In this document: positions 2,428-30,872 of the stretch, in pieces | Position numbering within the stretch: the first letter of the stretch is position 1 | How the letters are laid out: the number at the start of each line of letters is the position of its first letter | Assembly (NCBI GenBank): GCA_964503685.1 | Contig: CAZDAW010000036.1 | Coordinates: forward strand, 1 to 32,162 | Length of the DNA: 32,162 nucleotides | DNA from: an uncultured Anaerolineaceae bacterium | GTDB lineage: Bacteria > Chloroflexota > Anaerolineae > Anaerolineales > Anaerolineaceae | Direction: 5' to 3' | Translations under genes and position numbers: made by a program | The notes under the pieces: model-generated | Told to the model about the DNA's origin: nothing | The model's input: only the letters and a program-made list of their open reading frames with translations | Databases searched by the model: none

Positions 2428-2596
2428 AAGCCATCCTCTTTTGAATAAATAATCAAAGATAACAAAATTATATTACACCGGTTTTGTAAAAAAAGCATCA
2501 GAGCAATCGATAATCTGTCGGGCTATAAAATAGGGTAAAATAGGCATGTTTAACTGGGGAATTGCAAGATATCGACCAGTTGGAAAGGATATCCTC

Positions 2597-3514
2597 TTGT
2601 TTGAAATCGTATTCCTTGGCACCTCCGCTTCCGCGCCATCTGCCCGGCGTGGCCTTTCAGCGCAGGTGGTCAAGCATGATGAACACCGCTTCCTGATCGA
2701 TTGCGGCGAAGGCACCCAACGACAAATTCTGCAATCCGGGATTGGTTTCAAACACCTGGATAAAATCCTTATTACCCACGGACACCTGGATCATATCCTG
2801 GGACTGGCGGGGCTGCTTTCTACTTTCCTCCGATGGGAGGCAATAGATAGGATGGAGATTTACGGCGGGAGTTGGGCTTTACAGCGGGTGAAGGACCTGC
2901 TCTATAACATTGTGTTGCGTGGCGCCACGCCGCCGATGACTATCCTGTTTAACGAGATAAAATCTGGCGTTTTTTTTGAGGGGGAAGATTTTAGCGTATC
3001 TGCATTTCCTGTATCGCACCGGGGCCCCGATTGCCTGGGTTTTCTTTTTGAAGAAAAGGGGCATCGTCCGTTCCTGCCAGAAAAGGCAGATGCGCTGGGA
3101 ATTCCTCCCGGCCCCTGGCGGCGCGACCTTGTCAAAGGGATGGCAGTCACCTTGCCTGATGGGCGGGTAATTTCTCCGGAGGATGTACTGGGGCCTTTTA
3201 AACCCGGAACACGCTTGGTGCATGTTGGCGACGTCGGCAAGGTCGATGATCTGGTCGCTATCTGTAAGGATGCAGATGCGCTTGTTATCGAGTCAACTTA
3301 TATGGAGGAAGAGATTGATCTGGCGCAACAATTCGCGCACCTGACTGCCCGGCAGGCTGCCACGCTGGCGGTAAAGGCCGGTATCAAGCAATTAATTCTT
3401 ACACATATCTCTCGCCGTTACCGCGAAAAAGATGTGCTGACAGAGGCGCAAGCGGTTTTCCCTAACACGGTTGTGGCCCGCGATTTCGATACTTTTCAGA
3501 TCAAGCACGAATAG
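2597..3514 (+). CDS. rnz: Ribonuclease Z (tRNA 3' endonuclease, metallo-beta-lactamase fold)
   Basis: HxHxDH motif (ITHGHLDHILGL). The N-terminus ..FEIVFLGTSASAPS.. aligns with the canonical RNase Z start MELIFLGTSAGVP. Proposed start is the in-frame TTG at 2597, preceded by GGAAAGGA with a 6-nt spacing. The ORF-track ATG at 2546 would add 17 non-conserved residues and has no SD. Confidence 0.8.
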   Translation: MFEIVFLGTSASAPSARRGLSAQVVKHDEHRFLIDCGEGTQRQILQSGIGFKHLDKILITHGHLDHILGLAGLLSTFLRWEAIDRMEIYGGSWALQRVKDLLYNIVLRGATPPMTILFNEIKSGVFFEGEDFSVSAFPVSHRGPDCLGFLFEEKGHRPFLPEKADALGIPPGPWRRDLVKGMAVTLPDGRVISPEDVLGPFKPGTRLVHVGDVGKVDDLVAICKDADALVIESTYMEEEIDLAQQFAHLTARQAATLAVKAGIKQLILTHISRRYREKDVLTEAQAVFPNTVVARDFDTFQIKHE

Positions 3515-3543
3515 TACAACTACATCGTAAGTAATCATTAACT

Positions 3544-3560
3544 AATTGCATAAAGAATAT
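3544..3560. repeat. Left copy of an imperfect ~17-18 bp direct repeat (AATTGCATAAAGAATAT) flanking the AT-rich islet
   Basis: Compare with AATTCGCATAAGAATTAT at ~5518-5535 (15 matches, 2 single-base indels). The two copies bracket a ~2 kb lower-GC segment. Confidence 0.3.
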
Positions 3561-3602
3561 GTGCATATTTGCAGCATAATTGTAAATATGCAAGGAGAAC
3601 CG

Positions 3603-4823
3603 ATGACCGTTGATTTCATCCCTCGACGACTTGGTTTAGTTGTACGCAAGGCTGTGACTGAATTTCCCGCTACTGTATTGGTTGGTCCGCGCCAGTCGGG
3701 TAAAACCACATTACTGAGATATCATTTTGGGGAACAATATTCACTTGTCTCTCTTGACTCACCAGATGTGCGTCTTGCCGCACAGACTGATCCACGTGGA
3801 TTTCTCGATTTATATCCTCCCCCTGTTATTTTGGATGAAATCCAATACGCACCAGAGCTGTTACCCTATATCAAAGAGAAAATTGATAATAATCGCAGCC
3901 AATTCGGACAATATATTTTGACCGCCTCACAAAACCTGTTATTAATGCAGCAGGTGACGGAAAGCCTTGCTGGACGCGCTGCAGTGCTAAAACTGATGCC
4001 GCTTTCGCGTGGTGAGGTTAATCGAAACCCTGAAAGATGTTTCATCTGGGAGGATTCGTCAATTTCCAGCCTGCCAGATCAGACCCCCGTCGAATTGTGG
4101 AAACAAATATTGCGAGGCGCTTATCCTGAACTTGTTGCCCATCCTGAGCGGGATGCACATTTATGGCTGTCAAGTTATATTCAGACATACCTGGAACGTG
4201 ATGTACGTAACTTGCGAGTGCTGGGTAGCTTGACCCAATTCCAGGTTTTTTTGCGCGCTCTGGCTGCTCGTAGTGCTCAGATATTGAACTTGAGTGAACT
4301 TGCCCGTGATGTGGGTGTTGCTGTCAATACGATCAAAGATTGGATTTCTATTTTGGAAGCCAGTTTTCAGATTTTTACCTTGCGTCCATATTATGCCAAT
4401 ATTGGTAAACGGTTGATTAAATCGCCGAAGATTTATTTCTTCGATACGGGTTTATTGTGCTATCTGGTCGGATTGCGCGATATCGAACATGCTGCTCGTG
4501 GACCTATGGGTGGTGCAATTTTTGAAAATTTTGTGATTGCTGATCTATTCAAAACACACCTGCATCGGGGCGAAGAACCGGCTCTGTATTATTGGCGTAC
4601 GGCTGCCGGTTCTGAGGTGGATGTAATTATCGAAACGCAAGCCGGATTGATTCCAATCGAAATCAAACTATCCGCAACACCTCGGCCAGAAATGGCAAAA
4701 GAGTTGGTTTCCTTTCGGCGCGACTTCAAAGAAAGAACTTTGCCTGGATATGTAATTCATACTGGTAAGATGACTCTTCCACTTGGACAGGGTATTATTG
4801 CTCTGCCATTAAGTAGGCTTTAA
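3603..4823 (+). CDS. AAA+ ATPase of the AAA_14 + DUF4143 architecture
   Basis: Walker A VGPRQSGKTTLL close to the N-terminus and Walker B-like ..VILDEIQ..; ~400 aa length and C-terminal region typical of DUF4143-family ATPases. Start moved to the ATG at 3603 (M20 of the track ORF), immediately after AAGGAG. Local GC is visibly lower than in the flanking genes. Confidence 0.75.
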   Translation: MTVDFIPRRLGLVVRKAVTEFPATVLVGPRQSGKTTLLRYHFGEQYSLVSLDSPDVRLAAQTDPRGFLDLYPPPVILDEIQYAPELLPYIKEKIDNNRSQFGQYILTASQNLLLMQQVTESLAGRAAVLKLMPLSRGEVNRNPERCFIWEDSSISSLPDQTPVELWKQILRGAYPELVAHPERDAHLWLSSYIQTYLERDVRNLRVLGSLTQFQVFLRALAARSAQILNLSELARDVGVAVNTIKDWISILEASFQIFTLRPYYANIGKRLIKSPKIYFFDTGLLCYLVGLRDIEHAARGPMGGAIFENFVIADLFKTHLHRGEEPALYYWRTAAGSEVDVIIETQAGLIPIEIKLSATPRPEMAKELVSFRRDFKERTLPGYVIHTGKMTLPLGQGIIALPLSRL

Positions 4824-7173: not shown

Positions 7174-8241
7174 TTATTGCCCGGTGAAGAACTCGTAAGT
7201 GAGTTGTGAGACCATTGTAATTAATTGTTCTGCTTCTTTGAAATTTTTTTGTGGAACTTTATTGGCAATCACGGCGATCAGGTAAGCAGTATCTGATGTT
7301 TCAACCAGAGCAACATCGCCAATAGCATTTCCATCAGGTAAAAAGTCCTGCCCTATCTTGTGCGCCATGCAGATATTTTCGTCTGCTGCCAGACCTTTGC
7401 CAATTCGGATCATGTCGTCTGGCGAAGCCGTATGCAGTATCGAAAGCATTTTCTTTGTATCATCGTATGATAGAATTTGCCCAAAGTAGAGTTTTTCAAG
7501 TAAACCTGCCAGATCAGCCGGCGAAGAAAGCCATGGTTGAAGCGTTGTCTGATCTGCTTCCCATGAATCGAGCAAGGCTTCTGGATCCAGATCTGTTTGA
7601 TTGGATAAGAAATTGGACAGGGCGCGGGTTGCGTCTTCTGAGGATATGATCAGCATATCTCTTAATAGCTGATCAAAGGATTGTTTGGTTCCTGGAACTT
7701 CATCCGTCAGCCGAACATTGCGGTTGTGCTCGAGATAATATAGTATCTCAAATCCGATGGCCAGCTTGATTGTGGATGCTGGTTTATAGACTTCATCGGC
7801 TGCAACGGCAACTGTTTCCCCCGTGAATATATTTTTGATATAAATACCCCAATTGCCTGGAACGGTTTGCGCCATTGTTTCAATTTTTTGGGTAAAAAGT
7901 GTATCGGTTTTTCTTTCTTTCTGGATTGGTAAATTAATTGGTTTCCATGCTGCCTGGCAGCTGGTGACCTCTAATTTATAGTCATTGGCGTCAATATTAA
8001 TATCCTGCGCGGCGACAGGCGAATCGGTAGGTTGGATAACAGTTGGAGAGGGGAGCAGCGTTGTAGCGGTGCTTTTAAAAGTCGGTGTTTGAAATTCTGA
8101 CCGGGTCGGCGTTATGGTTATAACTGGCGAAGGAATCACTGTTACGCTATCTGACGGCTTGATTCTTGCTATGAGCAGCCCGCCTGTGCATATAAATATT
8201 AACGCGAACAGAGTACCATAAATGGCTTTTCTAGTCATCAT
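7174..8241 (-). CDS. Membrane-anchored class A beta-lactamase-fold (PenP-like) serine hydrolase family protein, paralog 1
   Basis: N-terminal TM (IYGTLFALIFICTGGLLIA), Pro/Thr/Ser-rich linker, then the beta-lactamase class A fold with S-x-x-K (ASTIK). The SDN loop is replaced by SED and KTG by KIG. The start was moved to M58/M59 of the track ORF because the longer ORF overlaps the upstream paralog by 86 nt. Confidence 0.65.
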   Translation of the reverse strand: MMTRKAIYGTLFALIFICTGGLLIARIKPSDSVTVIPSPVITITPTRSEFQTPTFKSTATTLLPSPTVIQPTDSPVAAQDINIDANDYKLEVTSCQAAWKPINLPIQKERKTDTLFTQKIETMAQTVPGNWGIYIKNIFTGETVAVAADEVYKPASTIKLAIGFEILYYLEHNRNVRLTDEVPGTKQSFDQLLRDMLIISSEDATRALSNFLSNQTDLDPEALLDSWEADQTTLQPWLSSPADLAGLLEKLYFGQILSYDDTKKMLSILHTASPDDMIRIGKGLAADENICMAHKIGQDFLPDGNAIGDVALVETSDTAYLIAVIANKVPQKNFKEAEQLITMVSQLTYEFFTGQ

Positions 8242-8326
8242 TGGATCAATATCTCGTTTGGATGATATGCAACTGACTGGAACCTGCGTGTATCTTTTGT
8301 CAACATTGCTGGCCTGGGTTAACTGT

Positions 8327-9391
8327 CTATTGCGTGAAATGCTTGTATGCCAGACGGGAGATGTCGGAGATGAGCATTTTTGCTTCCGTCCATTTTGAAT
8401 AATTGATGTCATTTACCAGGGCAACGATGATATAAGCCGTGTCGGGCGTCTCAACAATACCGATATCGCCTAACACACCCAGGCCATCGTTTCCGACGCC
8501 AGCTTCGATCGAACCTGTTTTATGCGCCAGACAGATGTTTGGATCTTTGGGCAATCCTCCTCCAATTCTATCTTGGTCGCTCTTTTTGGGAATGTGCATG
8601 ATATCCAGCATCTTGTGGGTGGATTGGGGCGAGAGAATTTGACCACGGTAGAATTTTTCCAACAGTAACGCCAGGTCAGCCGGAGTAGAGCGGCGAGGAG
8701 ATGTGGTGGTGTGAACTGCTCCCCATTCGTGAATCTTTGTGTCGAGGTTAAAACCTTTCTGGCTGTTGACAAATTCACTGACGGTATCCGTTGCGATTTC
8801 TTCTGAATCTTTTAGCATAGCCACCAGAAGTTGCTCGTAAGAGCGTTTGTTGGGCTGGATGCCGTTGGATAATTTTACAGAAGGGTTTTGTTCCAGCCAG
8901 GAAAATAAATCCATAGCGATGGCGACTTTTATCGTCGAAGCGGGATGGAAAATCTCGTCGCCGGAGATTGTGTAGGTCTCACCCGTCCTGAGGTCCTTCA
9001 AATAAACTCCCCATTTACCTGGTATTGTTTTGACTAACGCTTCCAATTCTTCTTGAAAAGCGGCATCTGCTGTCCAGTTCTCGACTACTGGTTCCGGGAA
9101 TGGATCCCACTCTTCCTGACAACTCGTGCCTGATTTGCGAAATTTACCCATCACTAATTCACGATTCACCCCGGTCGGCGAAGGTAATGGCGTTGGGGTA
9201 TTGGGCAGCATGGTTGCAGTGGGAGATGGTGTGTTTAGAACACCTGTTGCCTGTGTGGGGAAGATGATGTTTGATTTGGAGGCGGAATTTTTTTGCGCTA
9301 ACCTGACAGAATCATACACGACGTAAATAACGCCGACAATAACAAAAAGGCTGAGTAAAACGGTTGAAAAGGTTGATCGCTGAAATTTCAT
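8327..9391 (-). CDS. Membrane-anchored class A beta-lactamase-fold serine hydrolase family protein, paralog 2
   Basis: N-terminal TM (VLLSLFVIVGVIYVVY), P/T-rich linker, ASTIK (S-x-x-K) and KTG (HKTGS) motifs; the SDN position reads SEE. Same architecture as the downstream paralog. Confidence 0.7.
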   Translation of the reverse strand: MKFQRSTFSTVLLSLFVIVGVIYVVYDSVRLAQKNSASKSNIIFPTQATGVLNTPSPTATMLPNTPTPLPSPTGVNRELVMGKFRKSGTSCQEEWDPFPEPVVENWTADAAFQEELEALVKTIPGKWGVYLKDLRTGETYTISGDEIFHPASTIKVAIAMDLFSWLEQNPSVKLSNGIQPNKRSYEQLLVAMLKDSEEIATDTVSEFVNSQKGFNLDTKIHEWGAVHTTTSPRRSTPADLALLLEKFYRGQILSPQSTHKMLDIMHIPKKSDQDRIGGGLPKDPNICLAHKTGSIEAGVGNDGLGVLGDIGIVETPDTAYIIVALVNDINYSKWTEAKMLISDISRLAYKHFTQ

Positions 9392-19087: not shown

Positions 19088-21253
19088 TCAGGGCGTTTTG
19101 GGAAGAGGACGCCAGGCAGCGCCATAATCATTGTATTCATCGTTGGTTATGTTTTTCAGGCCTGTTCCCGATGTCATCATAATATAAATATCACGCACAT
19201 TGTCTTTGATGTGTTCATATGCCAGCCAGTCGCCGTCGGGAGAGTAATCGATGCCGTAAACAGGCGCCAGGCCTTCTTTGATCGCCTTGAAATCTTTGCC
19301 GACTGCATTAACTTTTTTTGAACCGATCTGCGGCATAGGGTCGCTGATGCTAAACATGATCGTTTCCTCTTTTGGCGACCAGGAAGGCATGAAGAAATGC
19401 GCCGTATCTCTGATCAAAGGACGTCGTTCTCCGCCCATGAGATCCATCGTGAAAACGTTGGGCGAACCCGTTTGCATTGTCGTAAATGCGAGTCGCTTGC
19501 CGTCAGGCGCCCATTCTGGATAAAAATCATCGCAGGTCAGCACTCGCGAAACCAGAGAGGTCTCTTTGCTGTTGATGTCATATAAGAAAATCCGGCTGAA
19601 ATCGATATCACGCACTGAGGTGAATGCGATTGTCGCGCCGTCTGGCGACCAGGCGGGGTCTGAATCACCTCCTGTCGATGAGAACAGAGGCCGGAGATTG
19701 CTTCCGTCGTAATTGATGACGAATAAAGCCGAATGGCTAAAAACGTTCTTGTGTTTGTACACTGCATTACGCTCGAAACCCTTTGGCGCAATACTTTCGC
19801 ACGGCGAACTGAAGACGATCTGGCTGCCGTCAGGCGACCAATCGGGCTGGCAGGCGCCATCCTGAACATCGGTGATCTGGCGTAATTGTTTACCGTCGGT
19901 GTTAATCACCCAGATTTGCGGTTTGCCTGAACGATCTGAAGCAAATGCAATTTCCCCGGTTCCGCCGCCCAGGCCAGGAGAAACGCCCGCGGTCGGGGTC
20001 TGCGTGGGCGCTTCTGTCGGGCCGGCTGTTGGGGAAATTTCTTCTGGTGGGGTAATAGTCATAATAGGTTCTGTTGTATCTGGCATGGGCGTGGACGTGA
20101 TATTTACTATGACATTCCCGGCATTTGCCTGGACGAGCGGCGTGGGCTCAGATGTTTCGAAAACGATGAACCCGGCATAATAGGCGACCCCAATCACGGC
20201 TGCCACGCCGATGATTCCCAGGATTAATATCCCCAGACCGCCCAATCCGAACAAGAGAGCTGTTTTGGCTTTAGGTCGTGTTTGACTGGCTGGTTGTGAT
20301 TTGGGCTGCGAAGCAGGTCGCGGCGTTGGCGTCCGACCTTCTAACCCTGCGCCTACCCCAATTACGGGGTTTGTCGGAATAGTTTGTGGGGGCGGCGGGG
20401 TGATAGTGATTGCGCTGTCATCAGCCGTCTTACGCCGGATGGTGGTATTGACTGCCAGGAGCGCCTGTTTGAATTCTGCCGCAGTCTGAAAGCGACTATT
20501 CTGCTCAATTGCCATTGCTTTCTCTATCACGTCTGCCAGGCCTTCTGATACTTCAGCGCCTGTTGCCCGCAAAGGAGTCAGTTCGGCTGTTTGCATGAGG
20601 CGCGATAAGCCATCTTCAGGCACCGCGCCGGATATTGCCGCATATAATGTTGCCCCCAATGAATAGATGTCTGATCTCTGATCAGTACCCTTGCCGTATT
20701 GTTCGGGCGGCGCAAAGCCAGGTGTATAAGCCTGCGCGCCGATGGTGGTTGCCTGGTTCGATTGAAATACTTTTGCCAGGCCAAAATCAACCAGGAATAC
20801 TTGACCGGTTGGAGTAATTTTGATATTACCGGGTTTGATATCCCGATGCAGGATTGGGGATGGAAGACTGTGCAGGTAATTTAGAGCGTCGCATATTGCT
20901 ATCCCGATCAATATCACGTCGCTTTCAGGCAGTTTTCCAAGGCGGGTCATACGCTGGCGTAAATCTTCACCGGCGATATAATCCATCACTAAATATTGCC
21001 CCTGGCCTTCGATAACAAAATGATCGGTGACACGCGGCAAATTGGAATGCCGCAGGCTGGCAAGGATGTTTGCTTCTTTATGAAACTGTCTGGAATACTC
21101 TTCGGTGGGATTCAGATTTTCTTTTACTGCTACTTCGACGCCTAGACTTTCATCTACCGCATGATAGATCGCGCCCATTCCGCCCTTGCCCAGAAGGCCA
21201 GCAATCCGGTAACGCGAATGCAATAAGGTACCCGCATCAAGCGTCATAATCAC
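19088..21253 (-). CDS. Ser/Thr protein kinase - TM - PD40/TolB-like beta-propeller receptor, paralog 1
   Basis: Hanks kinase domain (GKGGMGAIY, VAVK, HRDIKPGNI, DFGLAK, PE motif). P/T/Q-rich linker, one TM (LLFGLGGLGILILGIIGVAAVIGVAYYAGFIVF). Extracytoplasmic repeats of the PD40 type (DWSPDGSQIVFSS, AWSPDGATIAFTS, EWAPDGKRLAFTT, DYSPDGDWLAY). Confidence 0.85.
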   Translation of the reverse strand: MIMTLDAGTLLHSRYRIAGLLGKGGMGAIYHAVDESLGVEVAVKENLNPTEEYSRQFHKEANILASLRHSNLPRVTDHFVIEGQGQYLVMDYIAGEDLRQRMTRLGKLPESDVILIGIAICDALNYLHSLPSPILHRDIKPGNIKITPTGQVFLVDFGLAKVFQSNQATTIGAQAYTPGFAPPEQYGKGTDQRSDIYSLGATLYAAISGAVPEDGLSRLMQTAELTPLRATGAEVSEGLADVIEKAMAIEQNSRFQTAAEFKQALLAVNTTIRRKTADDSAITITPPPPQTIPTNPVIGVGAGLEGRTPTPRPASQPKSQPASQTRPKAKTALLFGLGGLGILILGIIGVAAVIGVAYYAGFIVFETSEPTPLVQANAGNVIVNITSTPMPDTTEPIMTITPPEEISPTAGPTEAPTQTPTAGVSPGLGGGTGEIAFASDRSGKPQIWVINTDGKQLRQITDVQDGACQPDWSPDGSQIVFSSPCESIAPKGFERNAVYKHKNVFSHSALFVINYDGSNLRPLFSSTGGDSDPAWSPDGATIAFTSVRDIDFSRIFLYDINSKETSLVSRVLTCDDFYPEWAPDGKRLAFTTMQTGSPNVFTMDLMGGERRPLIRDTAHFFMPSWSPKEETIMFSISDPMPQIGSKKVNAVGKDFKAIKEGLAPVYGIDYSPDGDWLAYEHIKDNVRDIYIMMTSGTGLKNITNDEYNDYGAAWRPLPKTP

Positions 21254-21352: not shown

Positions 21353-23455
21353 TTATGGACGCCAGGCTGGGCTGCTATCTGAACTGGGGTCGGTCGTGAG
21401 CCGCCGGATATTTGATCCGGTGGGCGTCATAACGTAAATATCGTGATTTCGGCCATCCGGCCAGCTTTCATAAGCCAGCCAGAATCCATCTGGCGAGAAG
21501 CTCACAAGCGCTACGGGCCCAAAATCTGATTTTGGACTTGCCGGTATCCGGTTTTCTTTATGGCTGAAGCGGTCTTCGTAGCGGATACTGGCTAAACGAG
21601 AAAATTTACCTTCCAGGCTCTGAACCACAAAGAAAATTGCCTGTCCATCGGGCGACCATACCGGGGTACTATTTTTAACATTTCCGCTTTGTGAAAGCAT
21701 CAACTCATTGTCTCCATTATCAGTCATGATCCAGACCTGGTAGTTGCCTTTCTTCCTTACAAACGCCAGTAGCGTCCCGGTTGGAGACCAGGCTGGGTAT
21801 CGCTCCGAGTAATCGTTATCAGACACATTTGTAGTTGTACGGTCAATAAGATTATAGATGTAAATTTGGGTGTGATTATCCCGTAAAGATGTAAAGGCAA
21901 TGCGGTTGCCGTCCGGCGACCAGGAAGGATCAAAGTCGCCGCCTGGTACAATGGGCAACGGCGTCAACCCCGAACCGTCATAGTTGATAATGTATAGGCT
22001 GGCGCCATTGTACTCATTCTCGTCTCCCCGGCAGGGAGAAACGAACACGAGTTGCATTCCATCCGGCGACCAGGCTGGCTGACAGGCGCCATCCGGTGTG
22101 TTTGTAATTTGGCGCTGGTTTGTACCATCGGCTCTCATAACGAAAATCTGGGGGGTGCCTGTGCGATTTGAGACGAAAGCAATTTCACCGACGCCGCCGC
22201 CCATCGGCGTTGCTGTCGGCGCCAGTGGTGTGGGCGTCTGGATAATTGTTTCTGGCGCAGCGGAGGTTTCATTGGCGGCTGTTGATAGCGGCGTCTGATG
22301 TACGGGGGTTGATAATGCTATTTCCGGGGTCACTCCCGTTTCAGCCATTGATACGAGCGGAGTCGGTGTGCTAAACACATTAAATATAGTGGCCCGGATA
22401 TTCTGAGTAAAATCTGGTAAAAAGTAATAGACAAGTCCTGCCGCGATCAGACCCGTAAAAACCATCGCTGTTTGCCAGATACGCCTGCGTTGTCTTTGCT
22501 TTGCAAGGCGACTCTTGGATATTGGCCTGACGATCTCTTTATCTGGGATATCTACATCGAGCGAGGCGTCATTAAAAGGAGATACGGGTTCTTGTTTTGT
22601 ATATGGCGCAGGAGCAATGGTGATATCTTCCATAATATGCCGGCTGCTATTACTGGCGTTTATCAAGGCGTATTTAAATTCAAGCGCTGATTGGTAACGT
22701 TCGTCAGCAGTTAAAGCCAGTCCTTTTTCAATTGTAACGGCAAGGCGGCGAGATATCTTGGGGTTGATCTTACGCAATGGAGTCAATTCGGCGTTGCCTG
22801 TTGCTCGCGCCAGGCTATCTTCAGGTATCACACCCGTCAGGGCAACATAGAGTGTTGCAGCAAGCGAATAGATGTCCGAGCGGGAATCTGTTCGCGCGGT
22901 TCCATATTGCTCAGGTGGGGAATATCCTGGCGTCATCGCTCTCGCGCCGGTCGTTGTTGTTTGAGATCCTGACATCACCTTCACCAGTCCAAAATCTACC
23001 AGCACAATCTGTCCGTCTGGGGTGATTTTGACGTTGCCAGGTTTTACGTCCCGGTGAACGATTGGAGATGAACGGGTATGTAAATAATTTAAACCTTCAC
23101 AGATCGCAATACCGATTCGAATGACATCTTCTTCAGGGAGTGTACCAACACGCTCCATTCGTTCCCGTAGATCTTCTCCGGCAATATAATCCATTACCAG
23201 GTATTGCCCCTGACCAGGAACGACAAAATAATCAATCACCCGCGGCAGGTTGGTAAAACGCAAGGTTGCCAGTACGGTTGCCTCACGGCGAAATTGTCGG
23301 GCGAATTCATCTGACAGGAACAGATTCTCTTTGACGGCGACATCGATTTCGAGGTTATCATCAATGGCGCGATAAACCGCGCCCATGCCTCCTTGTCCCA
23401 GGACATCGACGATTCGATACCGGTTATTGAGAATTGTCCCGTTCTCAAGCGTCAT
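21353..23455 (-). CDS. Ser/Thr protein kinase - TM - PD40/TolB-like beta-propeller receptor, paralog 2
   Basis: Same architecture: HRDVKPGNV, DFGLVK; TM MVFTGLIAAGLVYYF; PD40 repeats AWSPDGMQLVFVS, SWSPDGNRIAFTS, AWSPTGTLLAFV, VWSPDGQAIFFV, SFSPDGFWLAYES. Confidence 0.85.
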   Translation of the reverse strand: MTLENGTILNNRYRIVDVLGQGGMGAVYRAIDDNLEIDVAVKENLFLSDEFARQFRREATVLATLRFTNLPRVIDYFVVPGQGQYLVMDYIAGEDLRERMERVGTLPEEDVIRIGIAICEGLNYLHTRSSPIVHRDVKPGNVKITPDGQIVLVDFGLVKVMSGSQTTTTGARAMTPGYSPPEQYGTARTDSRSDIYSLAATLYVALTGVIPEDSLARATGNAELTPLRKINPKISRRLAVTIEKGLALTADERYQSALEFKYALINASNSSRHIMEDITIAPAPYTKQEPVSPFNDASLDVDIPDKEIVRPISKSRLAKQRQRRRIWQTAMVFTGLIAAGLVYYFLPDFTQNIRATIFNVFSTPTPLVSMAETGVTPEIALSTPVHQTPLSTAANETSAAPETIIQTPTPLAPTATPMGGGVGEIAFVSNRTGTPQIFVMRADGTNQRQITNTPDGACQPAWSPDGMQLVFVSPCRGDENEYNGASLYIINYDGSGLTPLPIVPGGDFDPSWSPDGNRIAFTSLRDNHTQIYIYNLIDRTTTNVSDNDYSERYPAWSPTGTLLAFVRKKGNYQVWIMTDNGDNELMLSQSGNVKNSTPVWSPDGQAIFFVVQSLEGKFSRLASIRYEDRFSHKENRIPASPKSDFGPVALVSFSPDGFWLAYESWPDGRNHDIYVMTPTGSNIRRLTTDPSSDSSPAWRP

Positions 23456-23689
23456 ATCAAATTGATTCCAATACTAAGATCGATTCTAACCCATGTCGCG
23501 TGTTTTGAAAGTAAATTACATCCAAAAAAAGATAGAATACCGGATTACCAGCTAATTTAATAAATTACTCTTGCATTATATCAAAACAATTAACCTTGAG
23601 GTATTGCAAATTGGCCGATGTTATGGATCAATTTTTTAAAATCAAGGCATGCTATAATTTCTGTAACACGCGCTTGCCGGGAAACCTTT

Positions 23690-24556
23690 ATGTATCTGGA
23701 TATTCATACGACTGTGCGAACCGCTTTTTTTTTGTCGTTAGCTGGCATCGTCATTTGTTTGATTGTCGGTGTTCGCTCGATACGCGGTGCACGTTATCTG
23801 CGATATTTCAAGATGCGCCGCGAGCAGGCGCTGTATGGCTGGCGGCTTATCCTGACTTCGCTCTTCCTGTGCGCCGTCGCTGTTCTTCTTAATTCCTATG
23901 CGGAGCCGCTCATTTATAAAGCTTTTCCGCCAACGGCAACGATTACGTTGACTCCTACCACTACATTGACGCCCACCATCACGCTGACGCCTACAGTAAC
24001 CCTGACGCCCACCATCACGCTGACGCCGGCTGTCAGCGATACACCAACTGCCACAGTCACACCTTCAATGCCGATGGCCATCGAAGCCAGCTTCAGCAGT
24101 ACAGTAACCCCAAATCCTGAGGCGATCTTCAGTCCTCTGCAATTTGCGCTCAGCCTGGATAGCTCTTATCAGGCGCAAAACGTGCAGGAGGTTTTCACGA
24201 TTCCTTTTAATCATATTTATGCTGTCTTTAGTTACGATAAAATGGTCGATGGCGCGCAGTGGTCAGCGATCTGGTACAGACAGGGCAAAATGGTTTATTT
24301 CGAGTCAAAGCCGTGGGATGGAGGAACAGGCGGTTACGGTTTTGCGGATTGGAGCCCCAAACCCGAAGATTTATACCCCGGGGAATATGAAGTTCAGATC
24401 TTTGTCGGGATGGATTGGAAAATAAGCGGGTTTTTCACCGTTGAGGGGAATCCACCGCAAATTTTGCCCACTCAAACTTTGACTCCAACGCCGGCTCAAA
24501 CTGCCGGAGGAACTCTGACTCCTCAACCGACTGCTGCGAAGAATTCACCCGAATAG
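23690..24556 (+). CDS. Hypothetical membrane protein with a (T-x-T-L-T-P)x5 linker and an uncharacterised C-terminal domain
   Basis: Start set to the ATG at 23690 (M25 of the track ORF), ~30 nt downstream of a TGcTATAAT extended -10 at ~23650-23658. Two N-terminal TM helices; C-terminal ~150 aa domain of unknown family; P/T-rich tail. Confidence 0.55.
   Translation: MYLDIHTTVRTAFFLSLAGIVICLIVGVRSIRGARYLRYFKMRREQALYGWRLILTSLFLCAVAVLLNSYAEPLIYKAFPPTATITLTPTTTLTPTITLTPTVTLTPTITLTPAVSDTPTATVTPSMPMAIEASFSSTVTPNPEAIFSPLQFALSLDSSYQAQNVQEVFTIPFNHIYAVFSYDKMVDGAQWSAIWYRQGKMVYFESKPWDGGTGGYGFADWSPKPEDLYPGEYEVQIFVGMDWKISGFFTVEGNPPQILPTQTLTPTPAQTAGGTLTPQPTAAKNSPE
23936..24028 (+). repeat. Five tandem 18-nt repeats encoding T(I/T/V)TLTP
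   Basis: Units acgattacgttgactcct / accactacattgacgccc / accatcacgctgacgcct / acagtaaccctgacgccc / accatcacgctgacgccg. Coordinates approximate. Confidence 0.7.
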
Positions 24557-24586: not shown

Positions 24587-25753
24587 TTATCCTTCTATTG
24601 GTTTAAAAACAGCCATCACGACTCCCCAGATGGAAAATGATGTATCGCCGGCCTCAAACCGGCGTTCCTTGATATTCTCATCGCTGCTATGTGGCTTGAG
24701 AATGTGGGTGTTGCCCTCATACAGGTATTCTTTCAACAAGGCTTGTGAAACATCTTCGTCCTGAATTTCTGCCACAACGATGTCTCCATTCTTTACATTA
24801 CTCAGGTCGCACCGCCGAACGAGAACGCAGTCGTTATTGTTGATTCCAGTGAATCGGCCCAATTTATATTGATCCATGCTGACGCCATTGACTCGCAGCA
24901 CAGCCACTTCATCGCGCGCGGTGTTGATCAGGTTATCATCTTTACGGATACTCACAATCATGTGAGGAATTTCATTAATTACCACCTGACTGACCTGCAC
25001 ATAATCCAGCGGAACGGACTGGTCTCCAAAATACCTGGGAATGCCGGCTGATACCTTTTCGACCACGGGGTACAATTGCAACAGGTCTTCCCACAGAGCG
25101 AATAATGGCATGATGATATTCTGGCCTGTTTCACCGGTAGAACTTGCCTGATCGTCGTGCGGCCGAATGATTTCCGGTTCCTCTGATTCGTTTTTAGAAG
25201 GACTTGTCTCGATAGAAATGCTTTGAAATACCTGTTCATATTGGCGCGTCATTTCGCTTCGACAGGTTTCGTACCATTCCCGTTTTTCGGGTGAAGAGCA
25301 ATTGGCTTCTTGGGCGGTGATTGATTCGATACAGCGCCGCCACAGAACGGCTGCATCGTCTTGTTTGCCGTCGAGTTGCCAGAGAATGCACCCCATCATC
25401 CATTTGGCGATTGTGCTTTCATATTGATTGGGAAAAAATTTTATTACCGCTTCCCCTAATATTTTCCTGGCTTCCTCCATGCGCCCAATCCCATAGGCAG
25501 TTAACCCGCATTCCAGCAGGGTATATGCCTGTTCCATGCGGTCAGTGAACGTGAGACTGGTTTTGATCAGCCGTTTGATTAAAGCCATTTCGCGTTTGAA
25601 ATTGCTAATTCCATGTTTCCGATTATCATCAATGGCGTCTTGAATTTTGGTGAGAAGCTGTCGTGTTTCTGGCTGTGGGTAGCAATCGGCGTTGAAATGG
25701 TTTAACCATTCGTAGGCCAATTTCATCAAGTGAGTAAAATCGATTGCGTCCAT
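24587..25753 (-). CDS. TPR-like helical N-terminal domain fused to an S24 (LexA/UmuD/CI-type) serine autopeptidase domain
   Basis: C-terminal ~150 aa align residue by residue with the LexA C-terminal domain. Ala-Gly cleavage site in VEKVS-A236-G237-IPRY (LexA VGRVA-A-G-EPL). Ser nucleophile in LRVNGVS292M (LexA LRVSGMSM). General-base Lys in SQALLK341EY (LexA VTVKRL). No HTH in the N-terminus; instead ~220 aa of helical TPR-like repeats (..ECGLTAYGIGRMEEARKILGEAVIKF.., ..AKWMMGCILWQLDGKQDDAAVLWRRCIESI..). Start is 2 nt after the stop of the upstream SPFH gene. Confidence 0.7.
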   Translation of the reverse strand: MDAIDFTHLMKLAYEWLNHFNADCYPQPETRQLLTKIQDAIDDNRKHGISNFKREMALIKRLIKTSLTFTDRMEQAYTLLECGLTAYGIGRMEEARKILGEAVIKFFPNQYESTIAKWMMGCILWQLDGKQDDAAVLWRRCIESITAQEANCSSPEKREWYETCRSEMTRQYEQVFQSISIETSPSKNESEEPEIIRPHDDQASSTGETGQNIIMPLFALWEDLLQLYPVVEKVSAGIPRYFGDQSVPLDYVQVSQVVINEIPHMIVSIRKDDNLINTARDEVAVLRVNGVSMDQYKLGRFTGINNNDCVLVRRCDLSNVKNGDIVVAEIQDEDVSQALLKEYLYEGNTHILKPHSSDENIKERRFEAGDTSFSIWGVVMAVFKPIEG

Positions 25754-25755
25754 TT

Positions 25756-27282
25756 TTATCTCACTTCAGATCCATTTTTATCTTCCGGTTGAGCGTTATA
25801 CAAATCTTGATCGGCGCCGGTCTGGTTTTTCTCGGACATGACGTCCAATATTTGGGCCGTACGCAGCAGGATCAGATTGCGCAAGTTTTGACGATGGTCG
25901 CCTGTCAATCCAATCTCATCCAATCCTTCAACGATATTGGTCAATAAGTCTGCCTGGGCTTCTGCTCGCCCAAGTTCCTGATAGGCCAGGCGCTTGGCTT
26001 CTCCGGTTGCCCGTGTGATTGAAGCGTTGCCCATCCACTTTGCCTGCCAGGAGTGGATGCGTTCCAGGTCTATTTTGCTTTCGGGTATCTCAAATCGCCC
26101 GATATCAATCCAGACCAGTTCTGTTCCGACGTTGTTAAATGTTGATATGACCGGGCCAGAACGGAATTCATCCTTGATTTCCCGGCGGGGGTCTTTGCCG
26201 CCGGGGCCAGGCGCCGTCAGATCATCAATTCCATGTCTGTTGATATAGCGGGTGATCGTCGTTTTTACATTCTGCTGAATGGTTGACTGCCAGGATACCA
26301 GCCCTTCTTTATCTACATTGCGGTTGAAGGCCAGGTCGCGCAGCGCTTTTTCCGAAAATGGATAGGGATCTGACATGGATCGGTATCCCTGTTGCTCGGC
26401 TGGCGGCCTTAAGCGCAACCGGTAACGGAAACGGATATCGAGAACTTTGATCATAATCCCGTCTTTTGTCGTGGCCACCATGTTTTCAATGGAACCAGCC
26501 TGATCGCTCAAGCTGACAATCTCTCGAATCCGTTCAAAACGCAAAACAGGGTAGCGCCCTTCGTGGATAACTGGCAGATTGCTCCCTGCTTTTTCGACCA
26601 GAACGGCATAACCGGGCTCCACAACCAGATAACCGGGGCCGCCAAATATATCCAGGGGGTTCATCTCGTCTTCGACGAGAATCTTTTCTCCGCCTTTTAT
26701 TCTCAGGATGGGATAGCCCAGGCCAAACAGGCTGCTAAACAGATAGGATGCATTTTTCCGAATACCATCCAGATTATAAATATCCTGCAGGTTGTGGGCA
26801 GCTATTAACCAGACGATCACCAGCGCGGCAAAAGGCGCAATGGCATAGCGCAGGGTCTTCAGGGTGAGAAAGAATGCCATCGATTCGAGTAGAAAATCGG
26901 GGAATGTTTCCAGATTGGGGTTGTTTATTCGCCATTCAGCTACCGTAGCGGTTGTATCAACATCTTCAAAAAGCGCTCCACCCATAACGATCATGATAAA
27001 GAAAACGATGAGGGTTAATAGAAGGCGCAGGTTCGCCCAGCCAAAATCACCTGAGACCAATTTGCCAAATTGGGTGCTTAATCGGCGGTCAAAACCCTGC
27101 CGGCGATCGTCGGTTTGCCGGCGGTCAATACCGCTGCGCCGTTCGTAATTCCGCCGGTCTTTTCGTCCGGGAGGAAGTTCATTGCGCTGACGCCGATCGA
27201 TGCCGGAACGTCGTTCGACGCCCTGGCGCCGATCAAGATTTTGCCGGCGATCTTTTCCTCTTGGGCGGTACAAATGAAACAT
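25756..27282 (-). CDS. SPFH/band-7 (stomatin/HflK-like) membrane protein with an N-terminal Arg-rich DRRQ-repeat tail
   Basis: Residues 1-70 are repeats of (D/E)RR(Q/S): KDRRQNLDRRQGVERRSGIDRRQ...KDRRNYERRSGIDRRQTDDRRQGFDRR. Two hydrophobic helices follow. SPFH core: ..GGPGYLVVEPGYAVLVEKAG..ENMVATTKDGIMIKVLDIRFRYRL..LVWIDIGRFEIP... Ala/Glu-rich coiled-coil tail ..WQAKWMGNASITRATGEAKRLAYQELGRAEAQADLL... AGGA SD 6 nt upstream; 12 nt after the upstream gene's stop. Confidence 0.65.
   Translation of the reverse strand: MFHLYRPRGKDRRQNLDRRQGVERRSGIDRRQRNELPPGRKDRRNYERRSGIDRRQTDDRRQGFDRRLSTQFGKLVSGDFGWANLRLLLTLIVFFIMIVMGGALFEDVDTTATVAEWRINNPNLETFPDFLLESMAFFLTLKTLRYAIAPFAALVIVWLIAAHNLQDIYNLDGIRKNASYLFSSLFGLGYPILRIKGGEKILVEDEMNPLDIFGGPGYLVVEPGYAVLVEKAGSNLPVIHEGRYPVLRFERIREIVSLSDQAGSIENMVATTKDGIMIKVLDIRFRYRLRLRPPAEQQGYRSMSDPYPFSEKALRDLAFNRNVDKEGLVSWQSTIQQNVKTTITRYINRHGIDDLTAPGPGGKDPRREIKDEFRSGPVISTFNNVGTELVWIDIGRFEIPESKIDLERIHSWQAKWMGNASITRATGEAKRLAYQELGRAEAQADLLTNIVEGLDEIGLTGDHRQNLRNLILLRTAQILDVMSEKNQTGADQDLYNAQPEDKNGSEVR
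27100..27282 (-). repeat. Imperfect tandem nucleotide repeats encoding the DRRQ / ERRSGIDRRQ peptide repeats
   Basis: Plus strand shows repeated ccggcgRtc / gccgatcga / cgccggtc units. Protein-level repeat ERRSGIDRRQ occurs twice exactly plus degenerate DRRQ/DRRN copies. Confidence 0.5.
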
Positions 27283-27294
27283 TTTTTATCCTGT

Positions 27295-28917
27295 TTAGAT
27301 TAATCCCTGCATGTCCTCTTCTGAAGAAGCAGGTGGAGCGACGTCATCTTGCAGCAAGAGCTGGCGTAAAGTGCGTAAAAGATTTATTGTGTCGCGGGGT
27401 ATCATCCGCCGGGTGGCTGGATCTGCTGCGGCGGTCTCCAGGGCCTGAAACACACGCATGGCCATGGCTTCTTGTGAATAGGTCTTCCCTTCCAGTATTT
27501 GCGATAATGTGTACACCATCTCGCGTTGCGCCTGGGCACGCGCTCTGAAGCGGATCCGATTTGCCTGTAATTCACTGTCGGCCATTGTCTCTGAAAATTC
27601 ACGTTCCCATCGCGCGCTCCAGGTGTCCACGCGTTGTTTCTGAATTTCAGGGTTGACCGGTTTCAAATCCAGGAATCCGGCATGGATGATCTTGATTCCG
27701 TGATCACGCAGGAATTTTGAATTACGCAATTGCCGCACAGGAAATATTTGCAGTTTGCTTTCATCCCATACTTGCCCGACTGTAAAAGGTTTTCCAAAGG
27801 GGGGGCGAACATACTGATAGGATAATACACCGTTTGAACGGATAATCTTTCTGAATGAATCCTGGTAATTACCTAACGGAAAGCTTGTCGCATCGGTTGA
27901 GAAGAAGCTGTCGTATTTGACGCGCCCGATTAAATCCCGAAATACTCCGATGGCAAATTCCAGAGGAAATTCTGTCCAACTACGTAGTCTGCCGGTCTGA
28001 TCAAAGGCCTGAGACGAAACGGCTGCAAATACTCGTTCGGGGTCGTAGATCATGTAATCATTTATCCGTTGCCAGGTGGGCGTCTGAGGCGGATCGTTCA
28101 GATCGCGGATGATTTCTGCTTTATCCGCCTCATCAAGGTCATCCGCTGTTAAGCTTTGAATCACTTTACCGCCGTCTTTATCTTGTAAATTGATCACTCG
28201 CAGGCTGGAAACCGATGGGGCTCTTTCGATACAGGTTACATAGAGCACATCGGCTGGCTGGCCAAGGGTGAATAGAGTCAGAAGCACCGATTCTATTTCG
28301 ATCCCATCTGCTGTATAAGCCCGCACATTGGGCTGGACGCGAATCTGTTTACGTAAATCTACAACTCCCTGTATAACTTCATTTCCCCGGCTGAATGCGA
28401 TCCCTGGTCCGCAGGCGCGCATTTGAGAGCCCGGCGCTTTGCCTCTCTTTTTATTGCGTGGGTTTGTCTGGCTTAATACGCCGAATTGCTTTTTAAGCAC
28501 CAGGGCGCTGTTTTGGTCAATTAAAATCACGCCCGAACCGGAACGCTTTTCTTCATCTTCTGAAGCCAGCACACGCCCGTCTTTCACGTGTACGGCCAAG
28601 CCGTGCATGTGTAACATCTGTAAAATCATGCGTTTAACCAGCAAAAACCATTCATTAAAAGTTTTTATTGGCAGGACAAATGGTGATATTAAAAACATCC
28701 CCAATATCAGAAACGGAATGAAACCAATAAAGCAATTGAATGCGGTAATTTCTAATGCACGTAATTTTTGGTCCGGCGTACTGGCTTGCGAGCCGGTCAG
28801 TAAATGCAGGAATTGGTTATTTTCAGGCCAGAAACTATAGCATGAAAAAGACGCCAAAAACAGGGCGATCACAGCCAGCCAGAAGCGTTTTCTCAGATAA
28901 AATGGCTCCGAATCCAT
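27295..28917 (-). CDS. SPFH/band-7 membrane protein (paralog of the downstream gene)
   Basis: Two N-terminal hydrophobic helices (FWLAVIALFLASF..; FIGFIPFLILGMFLISPFVL). SPFH core ..GSGVILIDQNSALVLKKQFG..GPGIAFSRGNEVIQGVVDLRKQIRVQPNVRAYTADGIEIESVLLTLFTLGQP... Later ..HGIKIIHAGFLDLKPVNPEIQKQRVDTWSARWEREF..ANRIRFRARAQAQREM.. Shares the W-x-A-x-W / Ala-Glu-rich tail with the 508-aa paralog. Confidence 0.65.
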   Translation of the reverse strand: MDSEPFYLRKRFWLAVIALFLASFSCYSFWPENNQFLHLLTGSQASTPDQKLRALEITAFNCFIGFIPFLILGMFLISPFVLPIKTFNEWFLLVKRMILQMLHMHGLAVHVKDGRVLASEDEEKRSGSGVILIDQNSALVLKKQFGVLSQTNPRNKKRGKAPGSQMRACGPGIAFSRGNEVIQGVVDLRKQIRVQPNVRAYTADGIEIESVLLTLFTLGQPADVLYVTCIERAPSVSSLRVINLQDKDGGKVIQSLTADDLDEADKAEIIRDLNDPPQTPTWQRINDYMIYDPERVFAAVSSQAFDQTGRLRSWTEFPLEFAIGVFRDLIGRVKYDSFFSTDATSFPLGNYQDSFRKIIRSNGVLSYQYVRPPFGKPFTVGQVWDESKLQIFPVRQLRNSKFLRDHGIKIIHAGFLDLKPVNPEIQKQRVDTWSARWEREFSETMADSELQANRIRFRARAQAQREMVYTLSQILEGKTYSQEAMAMRVFQALETAAADPATRRMIPRDTINLLRTLRQLLLQDDVAPPASSEEDMQGLI

Positions 28918-29054
28918 TGCCGGATTTCAAATCCCTTCCAGGTATCTGGTTTCTCAAAAACAGCCCAACCCGATGTCTGTATTATTTCAACCGGGTAATA
29001 ACCGCATACGATTCAGTATAGACAGGCCTTCAATATTTGTCAAGAAAACTTAAA

Positions 29055-30209: not shown

Positions 30210-30872
30210 TTGAAAGATAAATTAATCGTAGAATTTCACTGTCATACCATTTATTCGGATGGACTGGCAACACCTGAAAAGTTACTGGAAATAAGCAGAC
30301 GAAAAGGGATCGACCGGCTTGTTATCACCGATCATAATACCATTCGGGGCGCCCTGCGTGCCAGGGAGCTTGACCCTGAACGGGTGATCGTCGGAGAAGA
30401 AATTCTCACCACCCAGGGTGAATTCCTGGCCGCCTTTGTTAAAGAGGAAATCCCCAAGCGCCTGACGCCTATGGAAACGATTCGGCGGCTTAAAGATCAG
30501 GGCGCGTTTATCAGCGTTTCGCACCCGTTTGACCGCCTGCGCTGTGGCTGGGAAACGAAGCAGCTTTTGGAAATTCTCCCATACGTGGATGCTATTGAAA
30601 CTTTCAACGCTCGCGCCTATCGCGCCGCTGTCAACCAGCAGGCGCAGGAATTTGCCCGGCAGCATAACCTGGCCGGCACGGCCGGGTCAGATGCTCACGC
30701 CAGTTTTGAGTTGGGCGCAGCGACCATGACCCTCCCTTATTTCACGGACTCTGCCAGTTTGCGGCAGGCGATGGCGCAGGTGGAATACCATACCCGCTAT
30801 TCCGGGTTCTGGGTGCACCTGGTTTCGCGTTTTGGCAACTGGATGAAGAAAATGATGCCCGAACAGGCTTGA
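30210..30872 (+). CDS. PHP-domain metal-dependent phosphoesterase
   Basis: ..VEFHCHTIYSDGLATPEKLLEISRRKGIDRLVITDHNTIRGAL.. (PHP motifs I-II), ..SHPFD.., ..GSDAHA... Starts at a TTG preceded by GGAGA. Confidence 0.8.
   Translation: MKDKLIVEFHCHTIYSDGLATPEKLLEISRRKGIDRLVITDHNTIRGALRARELDPERVIVGEEILTTQGEFLAAFVKEEIPKRLTPMETIRRLKDQGAFISVSHPFDRLRCGWETKQLLEILPYVDAIETFNARAYRAAVNQQAQEFARQHNLAGTAGSDAHASFELGAATMTLPYFTDSASLRQAMAQVEYHTRYSGFWVHLVSRFGNWMKKMMPEQA

Follow-up and report, generated by a model that had tools for sequence, protein, structure and literature searches.

What does a LexA-type self-cleaving module do when the domain in front of it does not bind DNA? This question is raised by a gene at positions 24587..25753 on the minus strand of a 32,162-nucleotide (nt) stretch from an uncultured Anaerolineaceae bacterium of the Chloroflexota (assembly GCA_964503685.1, contig CAZDAW010000036.1, positions 1 to 32,162), the whole of which we call the window. 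LexA-type self-cleavage has so far been understood almost wholly as the inactivation of repressors, or the activation of UmuD, after DNA damage. Here, the same type of cleavage module is joined to a protein-binding domain and genetically tied to SPFH membrane scaffolds, in a deeply diverged family of at least 165 clusters at E<1e-10. Our favoured reading, to which we give somewhat better than even credence, is that the 388-amino-acid (aa) product is a cytoplasmic two-domain protein, with a TPR interaction domain, a flexible linker and an S24 self-cleaving domain whose predicted catalytic residues are intact, and that it would act as an adaptor on an SPFH assembly, the S24 domain being a self-cleaving and probably dimerising switch.

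The open reading frame (ORF) is intact and is laid out as follows.

24587..25753, minus strand: TPR-linker-S24 gene, 388 aa, stop codon at 24587-24589 (ORF list, Pfam, AlphaFold2).
25214..25753, minus strand: N-terminal TPR-like domain, aa 1-180, eight helices (AlphaFold2 and family profile).
25088..25213, minus strand: linker, aa 181-222, mostly disordered and rich in Ser, Glu and Pro (confidence score pLDDT <50 at 197-220), little conserved in the family consensus.
24590..25087, minus strand: predicted S24 (LexA C-terminal-like) autopeptidase domain, aa 223-388.
25043..25048, minus strand: codons of A236-G237, predicted scissile bond VSA/GIP (family consensus IPA/G), aligned to LexA A84-G85.
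24878..24880, minus strand: codon of S292, predicted nucleophile, in GVSM (family GDSM), aligned to LexA S119.
24731..24733, minus strand: codon of K341, predicted general base, in ALLKEY (family ATLKRF), aligned to LexA K156.

An earlier, sequence-only reading of this DNA had been in doubt by one base near 25020/25021. A frameshift near 25020 is ruled out by the intact ORF and by equally long public metagenome proteins that are 99% and 88% identical to its product. The AlphaFold2 model, for which a 54-sequence alignment was the input, has a mean pLDDT of 86.8 and comprises eight helices (6-180), the linker (181-222) and a beta-rich domain (224-385). The description of the N-terminal 220 aa as helical repeats thus holds for aa 1-180, while residues 181-222 are linker. 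With the single 388-aa protein as query, a word-indexed homologue search returned only the two near-identical sequences; the family emerged when 1.84 billion cluster representatives were searched exhaustively with HMMER. This gave 165 proteins at E<=1e-10 and 388 at E<=1e-3; the majority are 360-390 aa long and align over their full length at ~25-34% identity.

Several lines of evidence place the C-terminal domain among the S24 peptidases. The Pfam model Peptidase_S24 matches residues 229-380 at 47.4 bits (E=1.9e-12, cut-off 23.3), and hhalign pairs a profile built from 54 members of the family with E. coli LexA at a probability of 98.4% (E=7.3e-15). In this profile alignment VSA236-G237 lies on VAA84-G85, GVS292M on GMS119M and LLK341E on TVK156R, which puts both Ser and Lys on the catalytic positions of LexA. 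A structural search with Foldseek likewise matched the domain to LexA of T. maritima (E=1.9e-6) and of E. coli (E=2.7e-5). When the query alone was aligned by phmmer to a K156A mutant chain, K341 had fallen on LexA K159; this pairing is overruled by the profile alignment and by the family consensus ATLKRF, both of which lead to K156. By each sequence and fold criterion examined (a domain model above threshold, Ser and Lys at the S119 and K156 positions, and an Ala-Gly site N-terminal to the core) the predicted protein is therefore a member of the S24 family, and it is neither a LexA/CI repressor nor UmuD. The lexA equivalog model TIGR00498 reached 35.9 bits against a threshold of 110.95 and covered residues 280-385 only, the UmuD model NF007621 reached 27.4 bits against 110 with a match confined to the C-terminal ~100 residues, and no Y-family polymerase was among the Pfam matches of the scanned neighbour genes.

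The key residues are also well kept in the family. Among 99 full-length relatives at ~30% identity, A236 is retained in 92, G237 in 88, S292 in 93 and K341 in 92 (89-94%), and A236, S292, M293 and K341 are invariant in the 54-sequence family alignment (A1); judged from these sequences, the four residues are under purifying selection. The sequence-only reading had thus picked out the right Ala-Gly, Ser and Lys. It had also called them correctly spaced relative to LexA/UmuD, and this does not stand: 56 residues separate Ala-Gly from Ser, as against 35 in LexA, and 49 separate Ser from Lys, as against 37. The longer spacing is explained by ~20 residues that the whole family, unlike LexA, has inserted between cleavage site and Ser, and by smaller insertions specific to the query. 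Could the S24 domain then serve for dimerisation only, with no cleavage in vivo? The query motifs are indeed less canonical than the family consensus (VSAG for IPAG, GVSM for GDSM, LLKEY for TLKRF), and variants with two tandem TPR domains, described below, could be substituting for a dimerising domain. However, the retention of Ser, Lys and Ala-Gly in relatives so far diverged makes a role free of catalysis hard to explain, and we consider it improbable.

We then turn to the N-terminal domain, on which the choice between a repressor and some other function depends. With the query alone, Pfam reported S24 as the sole match, with neither TPR nor helix-turn-helix (HTH). The family is more informative: TPR_12 was found in 15 of the 54 relatives, and in a PDB search with the N-domain family profile the first matches were consensus TPR proteins (E=2e-10 to 1e-5), followed by Ctr9, RapJ and RPN7, with no DNA-binding protein among the matches. 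Nor was an HTH found in the N-terminus by Pfam, by the comparison of profile with PDB, or by fold search, as the sequence-only reading had anticipated. Conserved across the family are W16, L17, C82, W118, G121, W125, W138, W160 and Y161. The query N-domain is thus a divergent TPR-like domain. Its fold matches the peptide-binding TPR domains of the RRNPP receptors (Rap, NprR, PlcR, ComR, Rgg), and RapJ is matched by the N-domain sequence profile too, at E=5.5e-4; it differs from them in having about eight helices, neither an HTH nor a phosphatase module, and no sign of a signalling peptide, and the likeness is one of general TPR fold only.

These results bear directly on the public annotation. 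Relatives (including P0001, P0272 and P0273) are variously named LexA, 'SOS-response transcriptional repressor LexA', 'phage repressor protein C with HTH and peptidase S24 domain', 'TPR repeat protein' or hypothetical protein, and LexA is indeed the best resemblance of the S24 domain. On these grounds the protein might be taken for an ordinary SOS or prophage repressor of the LexA/CI type. Yet the N-terminus is TPR and not HTH, the lexA equivalog model touches the C-terminal domain only and far below its threshold, and the gene lies among genes for SPFH membrane proteins and housekeeping functions rather than among phage or SOS genes. A plain LexA or phage-repressor identity is excluded by domain content and gene context, and we attach next to no probability to it. 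Since these relatives match the query N-domain, which is TPR-like and without an HTH, their LexA and phage-repressor names are a systematic misannotation, one that could mislead predictions of SOS regulons or prophages in Chloroflexota genomes.

If not an operator, what does the TPR domain bind? The genes next to it offer the best clue.

25756..27282, minus strand: SPFH_B (gene 2), divergent SPFH protein of 508 aa, its stop 2 nt before the ATG of the S24 gene.
27295..28917, minus strand: A540 (gene 1), 540-aa membrane protein, by profile comparison distantly paralogous to SPFH_B and carrying large insertions.
29015..29043, minus strand: best-scoring sigma-70-like match, candidate promoter of the operon, TTGACA-17-TATACT, 11/12, ~100 nt upstream of A540 (consensus scan).

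The gaps between the genes are only 12 nt (A540/SPFH_B) and 2 nt (SPFH_B/S24 gene, TAA-AA-ATG), and the S24 gene is therefore the last of a tight three-gene operon. In the promoter and terminator scan the totals did not exceed those of shuffled sequence, so the site at 29015..29043 is a candidate only. SPFH_B matches Band_7 in Pfam at 30.8 bits (cut-off 23.6), and its AlphaFold2 model, made with database proteins, has a pLDDT of 80.8 and shows an SPFH domain followed by a 55-residue (coiled-coil) helix. Foldseek matched this model to HflK/C (7vhq, E=4.7e-10) and to erlin 1/2, prohibitin, stomatin, QmcA-YbbJ and flotillin, over a range of 5e-10 to 1e-7. The sequence profiles of both SPFH families found no match in the PDB, and it was the fold search alone that identified them. 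A540 from the window has no Pfam match; hhalign nevertheless relates its family to that of SPFH_B with a probability of 99.3% (E=3.5e-20, 321 columns), and a paralogous copy of A540 in another genome (L009) carries Band_7 at E=7.7e-5. By these comparisons A540 and SPFH_B are distant paralogues, both of them SPFH proteins. Each has two N-terminal hydrophobic helices, predicted from hydropathy to be transmembrane (TM), with basic residues ahead of them. By the positive-inside rule, both SPFH domains most likely face the cytoplasm, where the soluble S24 protein would be.

An Arg-rich N-terminal tail of SPFH_B (aa 10-67, ~27082-27255), built of repeated DRRQ and ERRSGIDRRQ units, was seen as well; it is absent from most SPFH_B orthologues (alignment A5) and lies in a part of the model with low confidence.

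Is this gene arrangement maintained elsewhere? Synteny and range were assessed from 12 genome loci, found through two peptide patterns, and about a dozen metagenome contigs. The pattern scan, run over one genome per species, gave 12 loci, all in metagenome-assembled genomes of Chloroflexota/Anaerolineae; as the locus pattern was drawn from a family subset sharing DIVAAEIV (A3), this taxonomic range is a lower bound and possibly biased by the pattern. All identified organisms with related loci are Chloroflexota. The order A540-like, SPFH_B-like, TPR-S24 was found in all sufficiently long loci whose third gene has both domains (L006, L008-L012, L014, L015), again on metagenome contig L004 and, in part, on L003 and L007; five further loci (L019, L021, L023-L025) have the SPFH pair followed by a TPR gene, variant forms included. 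Contig L018 begins inside the SPFH_B gene, and a TPR-S24 gene comes next. The TPR-bearing gene thus always stands behind the pair of SPFH membrane-protein genes, which strengthens the proposal, already made in the sequence-only reading, that the protein acts through protein-protein contacts rather than at an operator.

The variants in third position tell us which part of the protein is the constant one. Among 151 best representatives, the census of architectures (N, the TPR-like N-domain) was:

N-S24: 109 of 151.
N-N: 22 of 151.
N-S24-S24: 5 of 151.
N only: 5 of 151.
N-N-S24: 3 of 151.

At individual loci the gene or genes that follow were:

L019, L023, L024, L025: after the SPFH pair, a 330-aa protein with two tandem N-domains and without S24.
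L021: after the SPFH pair, a 174-aa N-domain alone.
L018: after SPFH_B, a TPR-S24 gene (950-2056), then a TPR-TIR-S24 gene (2199-3713).

Because the N-N and N-only variants keep their place after the SPFH pair, the TPR-like domain is the constant partner of that pair and S24 a frequent regulatory appendage. Both the tandem N-N and the N-S24-S24 forms would be expected if the working unit were a dimer held together by S24. The N-S24-S24 proteins (P0070/P0076/P0081/P0083/P0093) combine TPR with two tandem S24 domains in ~530-550 aa. In the TPR-TIR-S24 protein of L018 (P0073) a TIR_2 domain lies between TPR and S24, with an IPAG site between TIR and S24, and this sequence suggests that the S24 switch in the L018 paralogue can gate an NADase-type effector. 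Another relative, P0055 (761 aa), carries Trypsin_2, pentapeptide repeats and two S24 domains.

Such effector-bearing forms bring to mind an anti-phage or cell-suicide role, whereby the SPFH pair would sense perturbation of the membrane during infection and S24 cleavage would free or activate an effector. The TIR-bearing member and the relative with trypsin, pentapeptide repeats and two S24 domains both fit with this, as does a KAP-family NTPase, weakly QatA-like, directly upstream of the operon in L012, with ORFs of similar size in L014 and L015. However, none of the three operon proteins matched a PADLOC model (E<=0.1), the window protein has no effector domain, and the TIR and KAP variants are a small minority. 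Moreover, the operon is surrounded by housekeeping genes and not by a defence island; the window, with genes for HtpG, MetK and CoaBC, is part of the ordinary chromosome and not a mobile element. A defence role for the operon is thus unlikely in our estimation.

The favoured mechanism, an adaptor on an SPFH assembly with a built-in cleavable switch, would run in four steps. First, the two SPFH paralogues would together form a heteromeric ring or cage against the cytoplasmic side of the membrane, in the manner of the paralogue pairs HflK/C, prohibitin 1/2, erlin 1/2 and flotillin 1/2. Second, the TPR domain would dock the adaptor on this assembly. Third, the S24 domain may dimerise like the C-terminal domain of LexA, making the adaptor bivalent. 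Fourth, upon a signal that is probably not RecA-based, Ser292 and Lys341 would cut the Ala236-Gly237 bond; the TPR domain would be uncoupled from the dimerising domain and the complex would switch state. In the variants, cleavage would release the inserted effector, TIR for example. A more specific form of this mechanism, which we put forward tentatively and regard as distinctly less probable, is a membrane signalling device: the cytoplasm-facing SPFH cage would be both platform and co-protease, and a change in the membrane or in the cage would lead to irreversible cleavage of the TPR adaptor or, in variants, to release of an effector such as TIR. If true, this would amount to a RecA-independent 'membrane SOS switch'.

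Some points weigh against the adaptor-switch mechanism. Docking of the TPR domain on the SPFH pair is suggested by gene adjacency alone, and self-cleavage at A236-G237 is a prediction from sequence rather than from biochemistry. The loop that holds A236-G237 is modelled by AlphaFold2 at moderate confidence (pLDDT ~68-73). Variants without S24 next to the SPFH pair indicate that the core function does not require the protease. Finally, as the sampling covers a single phylum, common descent instead of selection could account for some of the synteny; this is countered by the S24 proteins themselves, which share only ~25-35% identity.

The main rival to the adaptor with a self-cleaving switch is a protease acting in trans. 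S24 would then cut either the SPFH proteins or the clients that their assembly retains, with the substrate recruited by the TPR domain. SPFH scaffolds are repeatedly paired with proteases, and the structural matches of SPFH_B include the HflK/C-FtsH and QmcA-YbbJ complexes. There is also an archaeal precedent, as 1510-N, a protease with a Ser-Lys dyad, cleaves the C-terminal region of PH1511p, the stomatin encoded in the same operon (PMC3795559). The conserved catalytic dyad also fits this role. However, the LexA-type cleavage strand and its Ala-Gly are as conserved as the dyad, which is the signature of self-processing. Characterised members of MEROPS family S24 act on the Ala-Gly or Cys-Gly site of their own family. 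In 22+5 of the 151 representatives the TPR gene stands beside the SPFH pair free of any protease domain, and the fold is S24 rather than ClpP/S49, with no NfeD domain detected by Pfam. Conservation of the cleavage site on a par with the dyad, together with the protease-less variants, argues against trans cleavage as the sole role, and we rate this rival as possible, with a probability well below that of the self-cleaving adaptor.

How does this arrangement compare with systems already described? With LexA, lambda CI and UmuD, the TPR-S24 protein shares the C-terminal fold, the Ser/Lys dyad and an Ala-Gly in the homologous strand (FPVxxxIPAG, against LPLVGRVAAG), as well as a general plan in which an N-terminal module is separated by a cleavable linker from a probably dimerising protease domain. 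It departs from them in that LexA and CI have a winged HTH, and UmuD a short arm, where this protein has a TPR domain, and in its gene set, which comprises SPFH membrane proteins and not SOS, phage or umuC genes. Nothing in the present data ties it, unlike LexA, to RecA or DNA damage.

A second comparison is with the STOPP/NfeD-stomatin systems (PH1510/PH1511 of P. horikoshii; YbbJ-QmcA of E. coli), in which an SPFH scaffold and a Ser-Lys protease likewise share one operon and an accessory protein is dedicated to the scaffold (PMC3795559; PMC2636767); SPFH_B also resembles QmcA and stomatin structurally. Here, however, the protease belongs to S24 (clan SF) and not to the ClpP-like S49 proteases, it has a LexA-type cleavage site of its own, two SPFH paralogues are present rather than one, and the TPR-S24 protein has neither the OB-fold of NfeD nor a membrane anchor (Peptidase_S24 being its only Pfam match). 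The analogy is thus one of function and not of membership. As in HflK/HflC-FtsH and prohibitin 1/2-m-AAA, there is a pair of paralogous SPFH proteins, each anchored in the membrane near its N-terminus and each with a long coiled-coil helix; the best structural matches of SPFH_B are HflK/C, erlin 1/2 and prohibitin. The differences are that the sequences are so divergent that family profiles miss the PDB entirely, that each protein has two TM helices and a predicted cytoplasmic orientation, and that the partner is a soluble TPR-S24 protein rather than an AAA+ protease.

A 2009 survey (PMC2636767) reviewed the operon partners of the prokaryotic SPFH subfamilies and their links to FtsH; S24 and TPR are both absent from it. 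Among literature titles and abstracts, we found no description of S24/LexA combined with SPFH, of a TPR-S24 protein, or of S24 combined with TIR or conflict systems. What appears new here is therefore the gene context, that is, the Chloroflexota operon, the family and its domain-swap variants, for which no earlier description was found and none of which had figured in the sequence-only reading. The function of bacterial SPFH proteins is a long-standing question, and a conserved soluble partner with an irreversible built-in switch gives an experimental handle on it. The predicted switch is easily assayed: gel electrophoresis would show it as a shifted band, and S292A, K341A or G237 mutations would abolish it. 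If the more specific reading as a membrane signalling device is true, the TPR-S24 protein would be the first dedicated, genetically tractable partner of a bacterial SPFH pair beyond the FtsH and NfeD paradigms.

A fourth gene recurs near the operon, encoding a PHP phosphoesterase.

30210..30872, plus strand, window: PHP/PHP_C phosphoesterase gene, 220 aa (Pfam), 56% identical to the L009 copy.
L007 1988-2650, L009 7948-8616, L010 3017-3685: PHP orthologues directly after the TPR-S24 gene.
L012 7998-8660, L014 7948-8598, L015 7926-8585: PHP orthologues directly after the TPR-S24 gene.

In the window this gene flanks the operon at its other end, 1.3 kb distant and on the opposite strand; in L009 the orthologue overlaps the TPR-S24 gene by 4 nt. 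Since the linkage persists despite rearrangement, the predicted PHP phosphoesterase may be a fourth component.

Other neighbours vary from locus to locus. The KAP-family P-loop NTPase gene of L012 (2539-3912) overlaps the start of the A540-like gene and scores 68 bits against QatA, whose cut-off is 600; the ORFs of similar size at the same position are L014 2515-3846 and L015 2527-3846. Near the main operon, but on the opposite strand, a second A540-like/SPFH_B-like pair of greater divergence is present in L009 (2-2928, minus strand), L011 (9752-12855, minus strand), L012 (3-2257, minus strand), L014 (2-2325, minus strand) and L015 (3-2341, minus strand). The SPFH pair itself has thus been duplicated in these genomes, and none of the ORFs adjoining the second pair matched a TPR or S24 domain. 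Where the third gene is of the TPR-TPR type, a large, convergent double-AAA (CDC48-like) ATPase gene lies immediately downstream (L019 4139-6766, L023 9409-10893 and L024/L025 9288-12077, all minus strand). The same ATPase stands directly after the SPFH pair in L022 (8392-10902, minus strand), where no third gene was called.

Further observations concern the rest of the window. Convergent to the S24 gene, 23618-24556 (plus strand) encodes a 312-aa protein with hydrophobic N-terminal segments and Thr/Pro-rich TLTPT repeats, an 18-nt tandem repeat lying at 23967-24027; it has no Pfam or NCBIfam match. A convergent gene occupies the same position in L001 (312 aa) and in L002, where the contig end cuts the gene. 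Adjacent paralogues at 19088-21253 and 21353-23455 (both minus strand) combine a Ser/Thr protein kinase with PD40/WD40-like beta-propeller repeats. Two adjacent ORFs of the Beta-lactamase2 family, at 7174-8412 and 8327-9391 (both minus strand), overlap by 86 nt as listed, probably because the mechanical ORF call misplaced a start codon.

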